In this document: positions 5,013 through 47,518 of the stretch, one piece after another | How positions within the stretch are numbered: the first letter of the stretch is position 1 | Layout of the letters: each line of letters begins with the position of its first letter | Program-made: the position numbers and the translations under genes | Assembly: GCF_053078305.1 (NCBI RefSeq) | Contig: NZ_CP166879.1 | Strand: one strand, 5' to 3' | Length of the DNA stretch: 64,000 bases | The notes under the pieces: generated by a model | Seen by the model: the letters and a program-made list of their open reading frames with translations, nothing else | Databases searched by the model: none | What the model was told of the DNA's origin: nothing

Positions 5013-5154
5013 GGATTTCCCCCATAAAAAAACCGCAGTACCGGTTTCCCGGCCTGCGGTAAAATTTGTGGTTTGTTGGTGTTAAAACGGTGCCATCCGG
5101 CTGACCACCCTCAGCAACCGGTCGGCGGGGGATATTCTCCCCCGCCACGGTTTC

Positions 5155-5295
5155 TTACTGCTTACACTGTAAGAACGCCGCAATCTCCGCGCCCGCTATC
5201 CGGAACCGGAACTCGCACAGTGAACTGTGGGTGATCCAGATAATGAGCACTACCGTGATACAAATCACGGTGGTTTTTAACGGTTTTTGCGACAT
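5155..5295 (-). CDS. hok: Hok/Gef-family type I toxin (46 aa), not in ORF track
   Basis: Own translation: MSQKPLKTTVICITVVLIIWITHSSLCEFRFRIAGAEIAAFLQCKQ; TM helix plus LCE-R-R...AAF signature; AAGGAG RBS 9 nt upstream. Confidence 0.6.
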   Translation of the reverse strand: MSQKPLKTTVICITVVLIIWITHSSLCEFRFRIAGAEIAAFLQCKQ

Positions 5296-5493
5296 AAACG
5301 CTTGCTCCTTTTACGGAGAGGCGCTAACCTTCAATTTGCTGAAGATCGAAAGTCAGGCCTCGGGTTAAACATGAATGTTTGTCCGGGGCCTTCGTCTTTC
5401 CGGCCTTCAGGTGTTCCCTCCGGCCATCAGCCAAAGGCACCCGCGCATACTGTACGGTTTTTGTCTCCTTCCGGCAATCCCGGGGCGCGATGT

Positions 5494-20539: not shown

Positions 20540-22121
20540 GTGGTGTTGTCTCCTCTTCCGGCCTGCGGCTCTCCGCTATCTGCTGCTGATACGCCTGCGC
20601 TATCCACACCGGACGTGAGAGTCCGGCTTTTTCCCGCTCTGCGGATTCCCTGACCTGCTGGCGGAAAATGTCCTGATAATCCTCACCCATCAGCGCCAGC
20701 TCTTTCTCATACGTGCTCAGTCCGGAATCAATACGCATCACCGATTCCTGGACCTCCTTGAGCCCGTCAATGGCCATTCTTCCGGCACCAATCCACTCTG
20801 CCCGTGACCAGGCTGATCGCGCCTGATAAAAATCAAAACGTGCCCGTGGCGGACGGATAATCCCCCGAAGAAGTGCCTCTTCCAGCCAGCAGGAAAACAT
20901 CTGCGTGGCCAGCCGGGCCGCAATAAATTTTCGTCGTCCCATAAAATAGCGCCACGACTCATTGGCAGAGGCGCGGGCACTTGAATAACTGACCTTCGAG
21001 TAATCACGGGACAACTGTTCGTAGGAAACGCCAAGACCGGCGGCGATATACCGCAGCAGCGCCTGTTCAAGCGCCGAAAATCCATTGTCTGAATCCTGCG
21101 CGGTCTGCAGTTTCAGATCATCACCGGGGAAAAGGTGCGGAATTTTGACACCACCCAGCGTCACGTGATTCGTGTCATACCAGCTGGAGAACTTCTCCAG
21201 AATATTAATGAGCGGATTATCCTGCTGACCCTGTGGTGCCCCCGCGATATATTCAAAGGCCTTTTCGGTATCAAGTTCACTTTCAATCGTCGCTGCATAC
21301 ATCGCCTTCACTATGGCCGACTGAAGCTGTGTTGCCTGCAGGGAATCGAGCATCTTCAGCCGTTCCATGACGCTGTAAAACTGATTGGCCCCACGGGTCT
21401 GCCCGTCCTCCACCGGCTCGAAAATATGCAGCATGGCCGGACGCCCGGTGGGAAGTTCACGCGGGATCCGTTCCCATCGTCCACTTCCGGAGAACGGAAA
21501 ATCATCCTCACAGATATGGTACGCAACGGCACGGCCATATCGATCGACCTCCACACCGGCACGCAGAAAACGGTTCCCCATACCGTGTCCTGGCGTGTCC
21601 ACCCGTTTCGGACTCACGGCTTTAAAACGCGTGCGGAATAACTGCGTGGTTTCCGTATCCCAGACCGGCTGCACAAAGATTTCGCCGTTAAAGGCATGAA
21701 CGCCCACACCTTCACGGATAAATTCCGTGAACGTGCGTTTCCCTTCCACGTCGATCTCGCCAAACATCCCTTCTGCGTATTCCGACCAGGCCGCCTCCAC
21801 CTCATCGACAAAACTTTTTGCCGCAGTCTCCCGCATCCCCAGCCAGCGCCAGTTCGGACGGTAGCTGATAAGAAACATATGCCCGACAATATGATCCTTA
21901 TGCAGGGCCACCGCATTAGCCGCTATCCCGTTATTGCGTACCAGATCATCTGCACGGGCATTCCCCAGACGCAACGCGGGCAGCAGGGCCGCATCGGCAC
22001 TCTGCGCCGGTGGCAACCACTCCGCCATTTGCCCGCCAAATCCTGCACCGCCCCCGTGGTAGCTGAGACTCTCCCGAAGCGGAACGCCGTTCACATCAAT
22101 CAGGACAGGCGTTCGTTTCAT
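20529..22121 (-). CDS. B: Portal protein B
   Basis: 530 aa, position and conserved blocks as lambda B. Confidence 0.85.
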   Translation of the reverse strand: MKRTPVLIDVNGVPLRESLSYHGGGAGFGGQMAEWLPPAQSADAALLPALRLGNARADDLVRNNGIAANAVALHKDHIVGHMFLISYRPNWRWLGMRETAAKSFVDEVEAAWSEYAEGMFGEIDVEGKRTFTEFIREGVGVHAFNGEIFVQPVWDTETTQLFRTRFKAVSPKRVDTPGHGMGNRFLRAGVEVDRYGRAVAYHICEDDFPFSGSGRWERIPRELPTGRPAMLHIFEPVEDGQTRGANQFYSVMERLKMLDSLQATQLQSAIVKAMYAATIESELDTEKAFEYIAGAPQGQQDNPLINILEKFSSWYDTNHVTLGGVKIPHLFPGDDLKLQTAQDSDNGFSALEQALLRYIAAGLGVSYEQLSRDYSKVSYSSARASANESWRYFMGRRKFIAARLATQMFSCWLEEALLRGIIRPPRARFDFYQARSAWSRAEWIGAGRMAIDGLKEVQESVMRIDSGLSTYEKELALMGEDYQDIFRQQVRESAEREKAGLSRPVWIAQAYQQQIAESRRPEEETTPRET

Positions 22122-22324
22122 AACCTCACTCCCAGCGGACGACGGCGACGGCGGGTTGTCCCCAGTACCGACTCCGCATCATTGATCGCACGGTTAAGCT
22201 CATCCAGAGAAGCCGCCGTATATTCAATTCTGCGACCATCTTTCTGGACAGACACCACCCGTTTACCGGTTAATAAATCAAGGCGCGCCTGACGCAGCGC
22301 CTGCAGTTCAGCGACTGTAACCAT
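22118..22324 (-). CDS. W: Head-tail connector W
   Basis: 68 aa, ...LTGKRVVSVQKDGRRIEYTAASL... matches lambda W. Confidence 0.8.
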   Translation of the reverse strand: MVTVAELQALRQARLDLLTGKRVVSVQKDGRRIEYTAASLDELNRAINDAESVLGTTRRRRRPLGVRL

Positions 22325-24236
22325 TCACTCCTCCGGACAGCTTCGCTGCCAGTTCTTTCAGGGTTGGCCGGGTCGTCTCTTCTTCCCGGGATTTTGCCAG
22401 TACAGCCAGATCAAGCTGCCAGCGTTGCACGGACACACGTAATGCCGCGTAGGCATACACCAGGCAGTCCAGCGCTTCGTTACGCCGCTTTTTGTTATCC
22501 CACAGCAGACGCATCTTTCCTTTTTCCCACTTCTCCACCAGTTCTTCCGCCACCAGTTGCTGCGCCTCTGTCTGCGAAAAAATCTCCGGATCATCAGGAA
22601 AACGGATGGCATACGACGTGGCTTCATCCGCAGGCGTGGGATCGGCTTTCATACGGGCATAGAGAATTTCTTTTGCGGTGTCTGTCCCCACTTCACACAG
22701 ATACACGCCCCGCTGATTGCGGGTTTTTGGCATGGTGATCACCGGCTTGCCATAGACAGATGCGCCTTTTACCGGCAGCACCCGGAAAACACCGTGTTTT
22801 TTTGATCTCTGATAAACAATTTCACCATCGATCCCCCCGGTGTCCCAGCAGACACGGGAAATGGTCATTTCGGTACCGTCTGCATGGCGGTATTTTTTGT
22901 TGATCGCCGCATCCACACGTAACAGCGTCTCTTCCTCATCAGGACGCCCCATAATGATGATTTTATCCACCAGAAAGGCTTCCTCTCCCGGAGCCCATCC
23001 CCAGACATACATCTCAAAACGGTTACGCTGCGAGTCAATGCCCGCCGTCAGATAAACCACCCGGGCAGGCACCGCTGCCGTGTAATGCACGACCTTATCC
23101 ATCAGCACCTGGTGATCGAGTTTTTCGCCCACGGCCTCTTCCCAGGTCTCGCCCAGCGTGGTGTTCACAAAAGTTTTCAGGCCGTTGGGATCTTTCAGTG
23201 CATCCAGCCAGTCATAGACTATCTGTACCCAGGTGGTGAACGGACTGTACGCCGTCCAGATATGGAAAGTGATGGAGCGCGGCGGCGGAATTTCATTACC
23301 CGCAGCGCTGAAAAACGTCAGGCCGTCACGGGTCCACATGCCCGTGTTTTCACAGATCCACCGCCCGTTGCTCTGGTCAAGCTCAGACTGATGGATCACG
23401 CAGCCATGATGTTCACAGAGATAGAAAACGCTTTCGGGGCTGTCCTTCTCCCATTTAAGGCCAAAAGGCGTGGACTCATCGCCAAATTTCAGATACTGCT
23501 CCTCCCCACAGTGCGGGCAGGGCACATAAAAACGCATGAAATGCGCCGACTCGTTGGCCGCTTTTTCGATCTGGCAGGAGCCTTTTATTTTTGGCGTCGA
23601 GCCGCGAATGGATTTTGGCCATACCGAGCCCTCAATACGCTTATCCCCCAGCAGGGTTGGCGAGCCCTCTTTTTCGACATCCGGCTCGAACGAGGAAAGT
23701 TCGTCATAGCAGACCACGTCCACGGATTTTTCACGGTAGTTTTTTGCTGCCGCACCACCCAGGCACCAGAAGCCCACCCCCGATGAAAAGCGTTTCAGCG
23801 TGAGAGTATTGTCACGATGTTTACGACCCAGCCACGGGGAAAGATCTTTCAGGCATGGCACGTCCCGAATCGTCGCCTCCACGTGAGACTTCATAAAATC
23901 TTCAGCGGCAGAATCCGTGGGCTGAAAAAGCAGACTGTTTCGGGATTTATGCTCAATAAAATACCCGACCACCCCCAGCAACATCTTTGTATAGCCAACA
24001 CGGGCAGATTTAATCAGATTAACAGTGCGGATCTGATCATTCCCCATGCTGTTCATGATGGCGATCTGGAATGGCAGCGTTTTCCATTCTCCGTCACCGT
24101 ATGAGGAGTCTTTAGGCAAATAATAATTTTGATCAGCCCATTCAACTGCCGTCATCGGTACAACTCTGACCAGAGGCTGCAGCGCAACCGAAACGGCAGC
24201 CATCATATTATTCAGTTGTTGCTCTGATATATTCAT
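22308..24236 (-). CDS. A: Terminase large subunit A; start trimmed to ATG at 24236
   Basis: MNISEQQ...TAVEWADQNYYLPK...GSVWPKSIRGSTPK...CPHCGEEQYLKFGD... collinear with lambda A. Confidence 0.9.
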   Translation of the reverse strand: MNISEQQLNNMMAAVSVALQPLVRVVPMTAVEWADQNYYLPKDSSYGDGEWKTLPFQIAIMNSMGNDQIRTVNLIKSARVGYTKMLLGVVGYFIEHKSRNSLLFQPTDSAAEDFMKSHVEATIRDVPCLKDLSPWLGRKHRDNTLTLKRFSSGVGFWCLGGAAAKNYREKSVDVVCYDELSSFEPDVEKEGSPTLLGDKRIEGSVWPKSIRGSTPKIKGSCQIEKAANESAHFMRFYVPCPHCGEEQYLKFGDESTPFGLKWEKDSPESVFYLCEHHGCVIHQSELDQSNGRWICENTGMWTRDGLTFFSAAGNEIPPPRSITFHIWTAYSPFTTWVQIVYDWLDALKDPNGLKTFVNTTLGETWEEAVGEKLDHQVLMDKVVHYTAAVPARVVYLTAGIDSQRNRFEMYVWGWAPGEEAFLVDKIIIMGRPDEEETLLRVDAAINKKYRHADGTEMTISRVCWDTGGIDGEIVYQRSKKHGVFRVLPVKGASVYGKPVITMPKTRNQRGVYLCEVGTDTAKEILYARMKADPTPADEATSYAIRFPDDPEIFSQTEAQQLVAEELVEKWEKGKMRLLWDNKKRRNEALDCLVYAYAALRVSVQRWQLDLAVLAKSREEETTRPTLKELAAKLSGGVNGYSR

Positions 24237-31963: not shown

Positions 31964-31993
31964 GCCCGCATCTCACCATGCGGGCTTTTTTTA
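31964..31993 (+). terminator. Rho-independent terminator on + strand
   Basis: cccgcat-ctcacc-atgcggg hairpin followed by cttttttta. Confidence 0.5.
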
Positions 31994-32000
31994 TCCATAA

Positions 32001-32238
32001 GAAAGCCCCTCCGGAGAGGGGCTGGAGTAGCGCTATGTACCGTTCATTACATGATGCCGGGTGCCTCCCGGTGAGTTCAGCCCGGTGCCACCGAACCCGC
32101 GTCATTCTCGCTAACGATCATCAGAGACCATTCCGTACACCAGCCGCCCCTCCGCACAGGGGGATTCATCATGCAGAAATTTTTTAACAAATTCTCAGTC
32201 GGGAAGACAACCTTCAACTGACTGAATTGTGAGCAACA
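32001..32238. repeat. Structured repeat unit 1 (~238 bp), diverged copy of unit at 32489-32723
   Basis: Shared blocks: gcccctccggagaggggc hairpin, gccgggtgcctcccggtgagttcag, cccctccgcacagggggattca-ATG, ttttaacaaa, ctgaattgtgag. Confidence 0.7.
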
Positions 32239-32488
32239 TAGCATTTAACGGGGAACCTGTTTTCTGCAGTAAAAAGGCCCACCGGAGCGGACGGGCCTGG
32301 AAGGATAGCGGTCATGTGATGCCGGTTTCCCGGTAACTCAGCACCGGTATCTGAGTCAACGTTTTCTCTACTGGGTCATTTCCGATACGCCCTGCCTGCT
32401 GACAGGCTTTCATCACATCTGAAAATATAGCACCCTGACTGATACTGTAGTACCCAAGGTTCCAGAAACTGTGATGTATCCGGCACAG

Positions 32489-32723
32489 AAAAGCCCCTCC
32501 GGAGAGGGGCTGACGCTGCGTATCTGTATCATCATGCGCATGGTGCCGGGTGCCTCCCGGTGAGTTCAGTATCAGCACCTGAACCCGCACAGAAAGGATA
32601 AGGGATGTAACCAAACACCTGTCGCTGATATGCCCCTCCGCTCAGGGGGATTCACCATGCCAGTTTCTTTTAACAAACTCCCCGCAAATCAGACAACTGT
32701 CAACCGTCTGAATTGTGAGACAT
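32489..32723. repeat. Structured repeat unit 2 (~235 bp)
   Basis: Same block order as unit 1; hairpins preserved by compensatory changes (ccgcaca vs ccgctca loop). Confidence 0.7.
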
Positions 32724-33810: not shown

Positions 33811-33887
33811 TGGCGCGTTGTACTGGATTCGAACCAGTGACCGATTGCTTAGAAGGCAATTGCTCTGTCCGACTGAGCTAACAACGC
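33811..33887 (-). tRNA. argO: tRNA-Arg (anticodon UCU), argO-like
   Basis: Cloverleaf folded by hand: acceptor GCGTTGT/ACAACGC, anticodon loop CTTCTAA, T-loop GGTTCGAATCC, CCA end. Confidence 0.75.
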
Positions 33888-33900
33888 ATGATGCTGATAA

Positions 33901-33977
33901 TGGACCGCCATCGGGGACTTGAACCCCGCGCAGCCAGCTTCGAAGGCTGGCGCTCTGTCCCGATGAGCTAATGGCGG
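33901..33977 (-). tRNA. argN: tRNA-Arg (anticodon UCG as read), argN-like
   Basis: Acceptor CCGCCAT/ATGGCGG, anticodon loop CTTCGAA, T-arm CGGGGTTCAAGTCCCCG. Confidence 0.65.
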
Positions 33978-33986
33978 TATGTGATA

Positions 33987-34062
33987 TGGTGGCCCTTGCT
34001 GGATTTGAACCAGCGACCTGGCGATTATGAGTCGCTCGCTCTCACCACTGAGCTAAAGGGCC
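33987..34062 (-). tRNA. ileZ: tRNA with CAU anticodon, ileX-like (tRNA-Ile2 via lysidine, or Met)
   Basis: GGCCCTTTAGCTCAGTGGTGAGAGC...CTCATAA...GGTTCAAATCC...CCA; close to E. coli ileX. Confidence 0.75.
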
Positions 34063-38102: not shown

Positions 38103-38172
38103 CGGATTCTCCGGTGACAGCAGGTGTCAGTTGTTCAGGCTGACGGCGCGAATTGTAAGTCAATACGCCTGG

Positions 38173-38205
38173 AATGTACAAACAGAAAACCCGTCAGTAA
38201 GACGG
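38173..38205 (-). terminator. Rho-independent terminator after YgiW-like gene
   Basis: Minus strand cccgtcttactgacggg followed by ttttctgtttg. Confidence 0.55.
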
Positions 38206-38224
38206 GCTTAGCAAGCCGGGACGG

Positions 38225-38569
38225 TTACTTTAATAATTTCAGTGCCTTTACATCAACTTCAACACTGCTCAGGTCTTTATCAATTTCACCCTCAATTCTT
38301 ACTTTGTCTTTCGGAGAAACATTCTGCCCGGCCCATACGCTGTCATCAATATCCGTGACAATTGTCCCGCTATTGTCACGAAACTCATAACGTTCATCAC
38401 CCACTTTTTTAATGATGCTCCCTTCAAGGATAACCCATGCATCATCCTTCAGTTCTTTTGCCTGCGCTACTGTTGAACGCTCTGCTTCAGGCCCCTGGAA
38501 ACCACCCTGCTGTGCAAAAACGCCAAAAGACACACCGGAAATAAGTGCTGCAATCAATACCTTTTTCAT
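38225..38569 (-). CDS. Periplasmic OB-fold protein, YgiW/YdeI (BOF) family; moron
   Basis: Signal peptide MKKVLIAALISGVSFGVFA; QGGFQGP...AKELKDDAWVILEGSIIKKVGDERYEFRDNSGTI... resembles YdeI/YgiW. Confidence 0.7.
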   Translation of the reverse strand: MKKVLIAALISGVSFGVFAQQGGFQGPEAERSTVAQAKELKDDAWVILEGSIIKKVGDERYEFRDNSGTIVTDIDDSVWAGQNVSPKDKVRIEGEIDKDLSSVEVDVKALKLLK

Positions 38570-38690
38570 TCATAGTCCTCTTTCAGAAATGAACATTCAA
38601 ACAGCATTTTCAGTATGGTAAAGCGCGGGTGCGTTGAGGATGCCTGACACATCAGAGGTGGCGAGGGATTTCTCCCTCGCCTGGTCACTC

Positions 38691-38846
38691 TTACTTCTCA
38701 GATTCGTAGTCTACGAAGACAGCAACCTCCGTCTGGCCGGTTCGGATTCGTACCTCGCAGAGGTCTTTCCTCGTTACCAGTGCCGTCACAACAACGGTAA
38801 TACAGATGACGATCAGGGCGATTAACATCGCCTTTTGCTGCTTCAT
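38691..38846 (-). CDS. hok: Hok-family type I toxin (51 aa)
   Basis: MKQQKAMLIALIVICITVVVTALVTRKDLCEVRIRTGQTEVAVFVDYESEK; track ORF extends upstream (mok-like reading frame). Confidence 0.8.
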   Translation of the reverse strand: MKQQKAMLIALIVICITVVVTALVTRKDLCEVRIRTGQTEVAVFVDYESEK

Positions 38847-39136
38847 AGCCTGCTTCTCCTTGCCTTTCGGCACGTAAGAGGCTAACCTACGTTTGTGAAG
38901 CATAGATTGGGCCTCAGATTAATGTTAAGCGTCCTGCAAGACGCGTAATGTTAACTGGGGCTTTTCTCTGTCTGCCTTACGGCGGCATGCCCGAGGCAGA
39001 CAGCCTCAAGCACCCGCAGCAATTCTACTTAACTCTTCTTTCCCCGCAAACCGTTTTTATCCCCAGCGGCAAATCGAATACACCACCAGCGCCACCGCCA
39101 TTGCAATACCAACATTTGAGAAGGCCTCAGGCCAGC

Positions 39137-39490
39137 TCATTGGCGCACCTCCTTCGGCGGTTCTGGTAGCGGCATCCAGTGTGTGGCTTCACACACGATA
39201 GGCGCACCGAAACACTGCGCATACTGGAAGTCACCCGTATTATCCAGGTTAAAACCTGTAAACTGTTCCCCCGTGCTGGACACAAACAGTTGTACATCAA
39301 CACCAACTGGCGGCATTCGCTCACTACAGCTTATCCAACCATCCGGAGTTACCGGAGAATTGCCAGCCTTGCACATGGCAATCTCCATGATTTCAACCAT
39401 ATCTCCTGGTGGAATTTTACAATGCTGACCAATATGCCTCTGCTGCCTGGCATATTCGAGGATGTGCTCCAGTTTGGTTCGATCAATCAT
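39137..39490 (-). CDS. Hypothetical nin-region protein (DUF551-like?)
   Basis: 117 aa, Cys-containing; family assignment from memory only. Confidence 0.35.
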   Translation of the reverse strand: MIDRTKLEHILEYARQQRHIGQHCKIPPGDMVEIMEIAMCKAGNSPVTPDGWISCSERMPPVGVDVQLFVSSTGEQFTGFNLDNTGDFQYAQCFGAPIVCEATHWMPLPEPPKEVRQ

Positions 39491-46475: not shown

Positions 46476-46933
46476 AAAGTGAATTTTGTGATGCGGTGAA
46501 TGCGGCTAAGCGCACGCGGAACAGTTAAAACCGTAAAGTGGTCTTTTACGGGGCGTAACGGGCATACTTCTGTATTCCGGCGTTAATTGTTAACTGGTTA
46601 ACGTCACCTGGAGGCACCAGGCACTGCATCGACAAAGTTCACTTCGGTGATGAAAGGTAAGAGAAAATGTTGAATGTAGCTATTGAAAACCAGAACGGGT
46701 GGAATTATAGTGCACCTGCACCTCATAAAGCGGGTGCCGGGATTGCTACCCCGATGTTCATCATGGCGCATAACCGCGCTCAGGCGTTTTTTTTATGCGT
46801 AATGCACAGCCACATTCAGATTATGGTGGGGCGTGCAGGGCAGCCGCAAGGCTGGCCGGGTTCCATGATGACCGGTTGTAGCAACCCTGTGCGTCTCACC
46901 ACCCATGAGATTGCTACCTCCGGTGGTGAGTTA

Positions 46934-47518
46934 ATGAAATTCATCATGGAGGCTGCCATCATGGCTACTATCCCTGCCCTTTCTCACCCTGAAATTACTA
47001 TCGCCAATGGGCGTGCTGTTACATCCTCTTTAGCTGTTGCCGAGTATTTCCGGAAACCACACAAAGATGTACTGGCAAAAATTTCACGTCTAGACTGTTC
47101 AGCAGAATTCACTGAGCGAAATTTTTCGCCCAGTGAATATACCGACTCAACCGGGCGCAAACTCCCTATGTACCAAATCACCAAAAACGGCTTCGTTTTC
47201 CTGGTGATGGGCTTCACCGGCAAAAAAGCCGCTGCATTTAAAGAAGCCTACATCGCTGAGTTCGATCGCATGGAGAAAGAACTGCGCCAGAATAACGCCC
47301 CGTCTCCCGACAAAATGATTCACGGGGACGGACGTACCCTGGTTATCCGTCTCGACGAACACGGCAATATCAAATTCACTGAAACCGTTCCTGATGGTGC
47401 AATGGTCTGCACCCTGGATACCTTCCAGTTTTATCTGGAGAAACAAGGCTGGACTCTTGTAAACCGGAGCGCAATTAAAAATATGACTGTGGAGCAATTA
47501 CTAAAAATTCATTGTTGA
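46934..47518 (+). CDS. rha: Rha-family phage regulatory protein (start uncertain: 46934 or 46961)
   Basis: ...ITIANGRAVTSSLAVAEYFRKPHKDVLAKISRL...PMYQITKNGFVFLVMGFTGKKAAAFKEAYI... Rha domain. Confidence 0.65.
   Translation: MKFIMEAAIMATIPALSHPEITIANGRAVTSSLAVAEYFRKPHKDVLAKISRLDCSAEFTERNFSPSEYTDSTGRKLPMYQITKNGFVFLVMGFTGKKAAAFKEAYIAEFDRMEKELRQNNAPSPDKMIHGDGRTLVIRLDEHGNIKFTETVPDGAMVCTLDTFQFYLEKQGWTLVNRSAIKNMTVEQLLKIHC

Follow-up and report, generated by a model that had tools for sequence, protein, structure and literature searches.

A hokD/hokW-type toxin-antitoxin locus and a YgiW-like gene as a very probable exchangeable cassette of a lambdoid prophage

We propose that positions 38187-39050 of contig NZ_CP166879.1 (assembly GCF_053078305.1), counted within the 64,000-nucleotide stretch analysed here and called the window below, very probably constitute one swappable moron cassette of a lambdoid prophage, in which an intact type I toxin-antitoxin locus of the hokD/hokW type is fused at its 3′ side to a gene for a YgiW-like protein. 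In our model a weak constitutive promoter (-10 TAGAAT) would produce the hok mRNA from about position 39015, and pairing of its tac element with the downstream fbi element would render this RNA translationally inert. Hok would be made only when the overlapping, in-frame mok is translated. A 71-nt antisense RNA, Sok, whose stronger promoter lies within the region where mok and hok start, would pair through its 5′ tail with the Shine-Dalgarno (SD) sequence and start codon of mok, blocking translation of mok, and hence of hok, with cleavage by ribonuclease III. Once Sok is lost, for example upon prophage induction, the stable hok mRNA would yield the membrane-depolarising 51-amino-acid peptide. 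The terminator that usually follows fbi appears to have been replaced by the YgiW-like gene and a terminator, which would make the encoded OB-fold protein most likely the distal cistron of the hok transcript, with low constitutive expression in the lysogen and additional transcription by read-through from pR after induction. A second hok locus of the window, at 5030-5442, would have its own unrelated Sok and be regulated independently. The elements of the cassette, every gene of which (hok, mok-like and YgiW-like) lies on the minus strand, are as follows.

39022-39050, minus strand: predicted hok/mok promoter, -35 TTTGCG (39050-39045), 17-nt spacer, -10 TAGAAT (39027-39022)
38841-39015, minus strand: hok mRNA leader, full-length match to Rfam RF01794 ("sok antitoxin") at 117.7 bits (gathering score 59) and E=3.8e-26
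39015-39004, minus strand: tac element GGGUGCUUGAGG, at the 5′ end of the leader, six nucleotides downstream of TAGAAT
38691-38903, minus strand: mok-like open reading frame (ORF) of 70 amino acids, an in-frame N-terminal extension of hok, from the ORF list
38861-38856, minus strand: hok SD sequence AAGGAG, in the hok mRNA leader
38691-38846, minus strand: hok toxin gene, 51 amino acids, Pfam HOK_GEF (PF01848) at E=8.4e-23, above the gathering score
38660-38681, minus strand: hairpin of the 3′ untranslated region, GGCGAGGGA-GAAA-UCCCUCGCC, directly 3′ of the stop codon of hok, folding at -19.7 kcal/mol (z=-4.0)
38627-38639, minus strand: fbi (fold-back inhibition) element CCUCAACGCACCC, pairing with tac at the 5′ end
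38860-38888, plus strand: predicted Sok promoter, -35 TTGCCT (38860-38865), 17-nt spacer, -10 TAACCT (38883-38888)
38895-38965, plus strand: predicted Sok antisense RNA, 71 nt, by gap-free homology transfer from the sokW misc_RNA of GenBank record AF125520
38570-38617, minus strand: junction; homology to Qin-type hokD ends at about 38617 (blastn boundary, query position 453)
38225-38569, minus strand: OB-fold protein of the BOF or YgiW/YdeI family, 114 amino acids, predicted periplasmic, Pfam BOF (PF04076) at E=3e-33
38187-38209, minus strand: intrinsic terminator, AAGCCCGUC-UUACU-GACGGGUUU then UCUGUUU, a 9-bp stem and T-run found by the terminator scan

The cassette has close relatives in Shiga toxin (Stx) phages. 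A megablast search against phage records gave 94% identity over 963 bp (38178-39140) to 933W and to VT2-Sakai (Sp5), with 45 Stx-phage records matched, and the record of 933W, AF125520, annotates L0136 ('similar to YgiW and YdeI'), mokW, hokW and a 71-nt sokW antisense RNA. The final 51 codons of the 70-codon ORF, starting at the ATG at 38846, encode the Hok sequence MKQQKAMLIALIVICITVVVTALVTRKDLCEVRIRTGQTEVAVFVDYESEK, which is identical to HokW at 49 of 51 positions, to Qin-type HokD at 45 and to HokC at 42; the two residues that separate it from the experimentally toxic HokW are both conservative replacements. The mok-like product matches MokW of 933W (65/70) and MokC of K-12 (50/70), as well as PHROG 251, 'MokW-like host killing' (E=6.9e-32), and its SD sequence, GAGG (38913-38910), stands 6 nt 5′ of the start codon (38903-38901). 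In both mokC/hokC of K-12 and mokW/hokW of 933W the two frames share a stop codon and differ in length by 57 nt, and the same geometry is seen at 38691-38903, bearing out the 51-residue Hok with an in-frame, mok-like extension that was described in an earlier note on this DNA. The Pfam, Rfam and NCBIfam E-values and bit scores for the parts of the cassette are far beyond chance.

An Rfam scan of the entire window at gathering thresholds returned two matches to RF01794, 38841-39015 and 5284-5442. Each has the orientation of hok and runs up to its start codon, from which it follows that what the model captures is the leader of the hok mRNA and not the antisense RNA. The predicted start of transcription, at about 39015, was read from the sequence, and the -10 hexamer TAGAAT with its GTTAAGTAGAAT context is kept at an equal distance from GGGTGC in 933W, Qin-type hokD and K-12 hokC. 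In the minimum free energy (MFE) fold of the 404-nt RNA running from 39015 to 38612 (-164.6 kcal/mol, z=-7.4), nucleotides 1-12 pair with nucleotides 377-389. In hok/sok of R1, the tac-fbi fold-back keeps the full-length mRNA inert. The conserved regulatory fold of the hok leader, on which the earlier note had made its reading depend, is thus present, both as the Rfam match and as the tac-fbi pairing, and the hairpin at 38660-38681 is kept with compensatory changes in an alignment of 12 loci.

The same note had pointed to 38850-39130 as the place to look for a sok-like antisense RNA, and the predicted Sok falls within it. It is identical to SokW at 64 of 71 positions and folds (-28.1 kcal/mol, z=-4.1) so that a 5′ tail of 14 nt stays unpaired ahead of a long terminator hairpin and a final UUUU, which is also the architecture of SokW of 933W and SokC of K-12, and it is complementary to the SD sequence and the start codon of mok. 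Across the hokD/hokW group, positions 38895-38915, which underlie the 5′ tail of Sok, show a mean pairwise difference of 0.25; the hok coding sequence reaches 0.049, the Sok stem 0.042 and the Sok promoter 0.019, the lowest value of the non-coding parts. The 5′ tail of Sok is the most variable part of the locus in this sample of 12 loci, and the allele carried by the window is unique within the same small sample. Neutral drift is an adequate alternative explanation for this variability, because the same bases encode the first codons of mok, which are probably unconstrained.

At the junction, 48 nt lead from the end of Qin-type homology, at about 38617, to the SD sequence (GAGGA) and ATG of the YgiW-like gene. 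In all six chromosomal hokD-type loci of the 12-locus alignment that are without the BOF gene, the terminator CCCGCTTCGGCGGGTTTT directly follows fbi, and a terminator of different sequence occupies this place in one plasmid locus and in the window's 5030-5442 locus, whereas the four BOF-linked loci (the window, 933W and two nin-region copies) have no post-fbi terminator at all, homology stopping exactly there. Along this strand the terminator scan gave no candidate from fbi to the end of the BOF gene; the terminator-like site at 38209-38187, which begins 16 nt past the BOF stop codon (fold -13.7 kcal/mol, z=-4.9), is the sole one on the strand of the cassette. Taken whole, the cassette is equipped with the hok promoter and a single terminator. 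Similarly, a promoter scan found nothing before the BOF gene at a threshold of 9/12, but this threshold also missed the hok (8/12) and Sok (7/12) promoters, and the absence is therefore weak evidence. Given the loss of the terminator after hok and the want of a good promoter ahead of the YgiW-like gene, the two genes probably share one transcription unit, which would run from the hok promoter through mok/hok and the BOF gene to the terminator. Furthermore, among 5426 complete E. coli genomes the BOF gene is present in 549 and the whole hok-BOF module likewise in 549 (about 10%), and from these equal tallies, which were compared as counts and not as genome sets, we infer that the BOF gene is essentially always attached to hok.

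Several observations weigh against this picture, and they bear on the alternatives that have to be considered. In the MFE fold of a hypothetical 836-nt bicistronic RNA, a length at which global MFE folds are unreliable, tac folds locally and does not pair with fbi, so that either the long RNA is processed or the idea of co-transcription is incomplete. A literature search for function, expression or phenotype of the phage YgiW-like protein returned only one association from a genome-wide association study (GWAS) and work on chromosomal homologues. The lysis-assisting role discussed below comes from the Sp5 copy of the locus, which lies at the right end of its prophage and opposite to late transcription, and not from a nin copy (PMC8621323). 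Finally, a relaxed promoter scan gave nothing better 5′ of the BOF gene than candidates at 7/12, among them TCCTCA-17-CATACT and TTACCA-18-AATGTT, equal to the score of the Sok promoter. These candidates, being no worse than a functional promoter, fit an arrangement in which the YgiW-like gene is an independent moron with a promoter of its own 48-120 nt before its ATG, perhaps stress-regulated or departing from the sigma-70 consensus, and stands beside hok only for historical reasons. The good SD sequence and the terminator of the gene agree with this, as does the stress regulation of chromosomal ygiW and ydeI (PMC6370654). We nevertheless regard such independence as somewhat doubtful, as no candidate appears at 9/12, all four BOF-linked loci have lost the terminator of hok precisely at the junction, which would make read-through from hok unavoidable unless it is stopped otherwise, and the BOF gene and the whole module occur in equal numbers of genomes.

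That the hok locus is a decayed relic, like the truncated or insertion sequence-disrupted hok loci of K-12, seems to us highly improbable. Genomes of the K-12 lineage do retain only the coding and 3′ part of hokD (query positions 453-696), K-12 hokC has IS186 20 bp past its stop codon, and the window's locus is without the usual post-fbi terminator, but here the -10 hexamer, tac, the Sok target, the SD sequences and ATGs of mok and hok, the Sok promoter and terminator and fbi are all intact, the toxin is HokW save for two conservative residues, and the terminator-less arrangement is that of the functional Sp5 locus. Indeed, a post-fbi terminator is a usual feature of the hok/sok family that is not decisive for membership, because the functional hokW locus also lacks it. 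A further alternative concerns what the present copy does, and holds that it serves prophage retention, by killing cells that lose the prophage, or phage exclusion, instead of lysis and progeny release at induction. The hok/sok system of R1 acts in post-segregational killing and, in the account cited in PMC8621323, is reported to lower T4 plating, and the 933W record labels hokW 'prophage maintenance'. We consider this alternative unlikely, given that in the only direct experiment on the subfamily deletion of the Sp5 locus halved phage release and delayed growth arrest and left growth of the uninduced lysogen unaffected (PMC8621323); retention, exclusion and assistance of lysis are not mutually exclusive. 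By analogy with the 94%-identical Sp5 homologue, in which these properties have been shown, we would expect a toxic Hok, an active antitoxin, expression in the lysogen and a response to induction of the intact cassette proposed here as well.

Membership of the 114-residue protein in the BOF family is solid. NCBIfam models NF033674 (135.5 bits, cut-off 35) and TIGR00156 (112 bits, cut-off 108.15) place it in the NirD/YgiW/YdeI family, below the YdeI equivalog cut-off (65.6 against 179 bits); it aligns with E. coli YgiW of known structure (PDB 1NNX) at E=4.6e-29 with 49 identities in 94 columns (~52%), is identical to L0136 of 933W at 111 of 114 positions and also belongs to PHROG 1230. By inspection only, its N-terminus, MKKVLIAALISGVSFGVFA|QQGGF, resembles a Sec signal (residues 1-19), with MKK, a hydrophobic core and VFA|QQ, and it is with the homologous QGGF motif that the YgiW chain in the crystal starts. 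An OB-fold protein of the YgiW/YdeI family with a probable signal peptide and a terminator was rightly recognised in the earlier note, and its suggestion of a lysogenic-conversion factor is speculative. The chromosomal relatives YgiW, YdeI and SipA confer tolerance of peroxide, cadmium and antimicrobial peptides and bind porins or peptides (PMC6370654). In the GWAS, a pair formed by 'ygiW_2' and a mokC-like gene was associated with haemolytic uraemic syndrome (PMC11950266); the pair looks like the present cassette, the two families being adjacent, and we think it most likely that linkage to Stx2a phages, and not causation, lies behind the signal. A closely related prophage with an identical hok-BOF cassette (NZ_CP027586.1) carries an ompC-like porin gene among its tail genes, at 21351-22505. 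A prophage-encoded porin partner for the YgiW-like protein was considered and dropped, as no ompC-like ORF occurs within the window.

The window also holds the following elements of a second hok locus.

5030-5442, minus strand: other hok/sok locus, flanked by the J and tail-fibre genes, with the Rfam RF01794 match at 5284-5442 (63.5 bits)
5155-5295, minus strand: Hok of the other locus, 46 amino acids, matched by NCBIfam and PHROG Hok families
about 5338-5400, plus strand: predicted Sok of the other locus, with a Sok-like promoter, TTGCTC-17-TAACCT
about 5065-5030, minus strand: strong terminator of the other hok locus

This locus likewise folds its 5′ end back on its 3′ end in the MFE fold (z=-9.9), and has no in-frame mok, a stop codon standing 5 codons upstream of the hok ATG. 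Both loci belong to a single prophage of ~50 kb that extends from tRNA-Ser (1860-1947) to the integrase gene beside yccA at ~50.7-52.1 kb, as the earlier note had held when it asked whether they have independent antisense regulators or engage in cross-talk. The two Hok peptides are identical at 18 of 51 positions, each locus has a separate predicted Sok, and perfect complementarity between a Sok and the non-cognate leader does not exceed 6 nt, with tail-duplex energies of -10 to -15 kcal/mol compared with -37 to -39 kcal/mol for the cognate pairs. As non-cognate complementarity is this short and the non-cognate tail duplexes are this weak, independent regulation is to be expected and cross-talk between the two loci is unlikely.

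Cross-talk between prophages is another matter. Genomes of O157:H7 carry a nin-type copy of such a cassette between the same DUF551 and DUF968 flanks, and the nin-region copy of strain NZRM3614 (NZ_CP032793.1, 4001-4863) has exactly the Sok 5′ tail of 933W. Where nin and Stx-phage copies with the same tail reside together in O157, it is plausible that the Sok of one prophage could silence the hok of another; the lysogen of the published work on Sp5 was a K-12 strain with one copy only (PMC8621323).

The cassette occupies the nin-equivalent region of the prophage, as the earlier note had placed it, with a DUF551 gene on one side and, on the other, a 90-residue ORF, whose sole match is a PHROG of unknown function, followed by the DUF968, RusA and Q genes. 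Strain FHI_NMBU_10 has, at the same yccA site, a prophage that is 98% identical over 25 kb and in which an unrelated cassette lies between the stop codon of a 27-residue ORF (39057) and ~38127; this different insert between 98%-identical flanks shows directly that the slot can exchange its moron. The note's view of hok and the YgiW-like gene as morons is thereby upheld as regards a swappable insert, and is to be amended in that they look like one unit and not two morons. The Qin-like prophage of ATCC 25922 has the order hokD-rem-hyp-ydfU(DUF968)-Q, and the slot and orientation of the cassette are therefore usual for hokD, except that a YgiW-like gene stands where rem would be. A match of ~91% to the 414-bp hok/sok core (38617-39030), at genes called hokD by PGAP, occurs in 4720 of the 5426 genomes. 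Next to the hok promoter lies one further small ORF.

39057-39140, minus strand: unannotated hydrophobic ORF of 27 amino acids, MSWPEAFSNVGIAMAVALVVYSICRWG, status uncertain, conserved in 933W, NZRM3614 and FHI_NMBU_10

The start codon of this ORF and the stop codon of the DUF551 gene overlap (ATGA), and at its other end the ORF stops right against the hok promoter. The 933W version, MTWPEAFANVGTVMAVVLVVYSICRWR, overlaps the stop codon (ATGA) of a different upstream gene, so the ORF travels with the cassette; it has no Pfam, NCBIfam or PHROG match, and in Qin-type loci a different small hydrophobic ORF is found at its position.

Two other groups of RNA matches were observed elsewhere in the prophage.

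31993-32203 and 32483-32689, minus strand: two tandem copies of the STnc100 small RNA family (164 and 135 bits)
46718-46906, plus strand: matches to IsrK (58 bits) and C4 antisense RNA (78 bits), inside the 5′ part of a 283-residue ORF (46667-47518)

The STnc100 pair lies just downstream of the phage tRNA cluster (33811-34062), the position at which Stx phages carry stxAB. No pair of ORFs of stx size is present in this interval in the list of ORFs of 150 amino acids, no direct search for stx having been made. In a related genome the counterpart of the 283-residue ORF bears the annotation of a Rha family regulator; the start of the ORF may be placed too far upstream, or the IsrK and C4 RNAs may act in cis as in P1/P7 and Gifsy prophages.

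Occurring in about a tenth of complete E. coli genomes, the cassette is ordinary and for the most part a matter of routine annotation, and its residual interest lies in a phage YgiW-like gene that is apparently joined transcriptionally to a toxin gene. Genomes of Shiga toxin-producing E. coli (STEC) carry several copies of the hokD/hokW type, with identical Sok tails in some (the O157 nin and Stx-phage copies) and divergent ones in others (the window), and the sharing of tails bears on how induction of one prophage affects the toxins of another. A wider proposal, which we offer tentatively and rather doubt, is that replacement of the terminator by the YgiW-like gene in the hokW subfamily would have the OB-fold protein made from the 3′ part of the toxin mRNA, that the then internal fbi would make activation of hok depend on endonucleolytic and not 3′-exonucleolytic processing, that stress protein and toxin would be a functional pair moving as a unit, and that the hypervariable Sok tails would act as specificity groups deciding cross-regulation among the hok copies of STEC.

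Compared with known systems, the present cassette is the already named hokW/sokW-L0136 module of the hokD type, an identity that the first reading of this DNA missed. It was named in the 1999 GenBank record of 933W, its hok/sok part was studied in 2021, and it is recognised by PGAP and PHROGs; replacement of the terminator and the variable Sok tail are only modest additions at the level of annotation. With L0136-mokW-hokW-sokW of 933W and Sp5 it shares gene order, orientation and 94% DNA identity over the span between the terminator (38178) and the small ORF upstream (39140), as well as a 16-nt extension of the Sok hairpin, relative to the Rfam consensus and sokC, and the missing post-fbi terminator. 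The copies differ in location, the window's lying in the nin region of a long-tailed lambdoid prophage, co-directional with early rightward transcription, and that of 933W at the right end, opposite to the late genes; they also differ in the 5′ tail of Sok, at 4 of its first 16 nt, and in mok codons 3-5. For Sp5, Takada et al. (2021) found that HokW arrests growth and that sokW, transcribed from its own promoter, neutralises it, a mutation around the sokW -10 abolishing antitoxin activity (PMC8621323); in our reading, their primer YO-421 changes bases complementary to the hexamer that here is TAACCT. The hokW messenger and the sokW RNA were both present in the uninduced lysogen, and RecA-dependent induction led to loss of sokW and production of HokW (PMC8621323).

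The hokD (relF) loci of Qin-like prophages share with the window the slot upstream of hyp-DUF968(ydfU)-Q, the orientation and 45 of 51 Hok residues, but keep CCCGCTTCGGCGGGTTTT right after fbi, followed by rem, and have no YgiW-like gene, while hokD of K-12 itself is missing the entire leader and sok part. The regulatory logic proposed for the window's locus is that of R1 hok/sok and K-12 hokC/mokC/sokC, with the tac/fbi foldback, mok-coupled translation and a cis-antisense Sok made up of a 5′ tail and a terminator hairpin. In K-12, as in the window, mok is in frame with hok, whereas mok of R1 is read in a frame other than that of hok. Moreover, HokW is only 44% identical to the Hok of R1 (PMC8621323). 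The YgiW-like protein, finally, resembles YgiW (1NNX), YdeI/OmdA and SipA of V. cholerae in its BOF domain, in a putative signal peptide, here recognised by inspection, and in its similar size, and differs from all of them in that its gene is phage-borne and joined to a hok locus.

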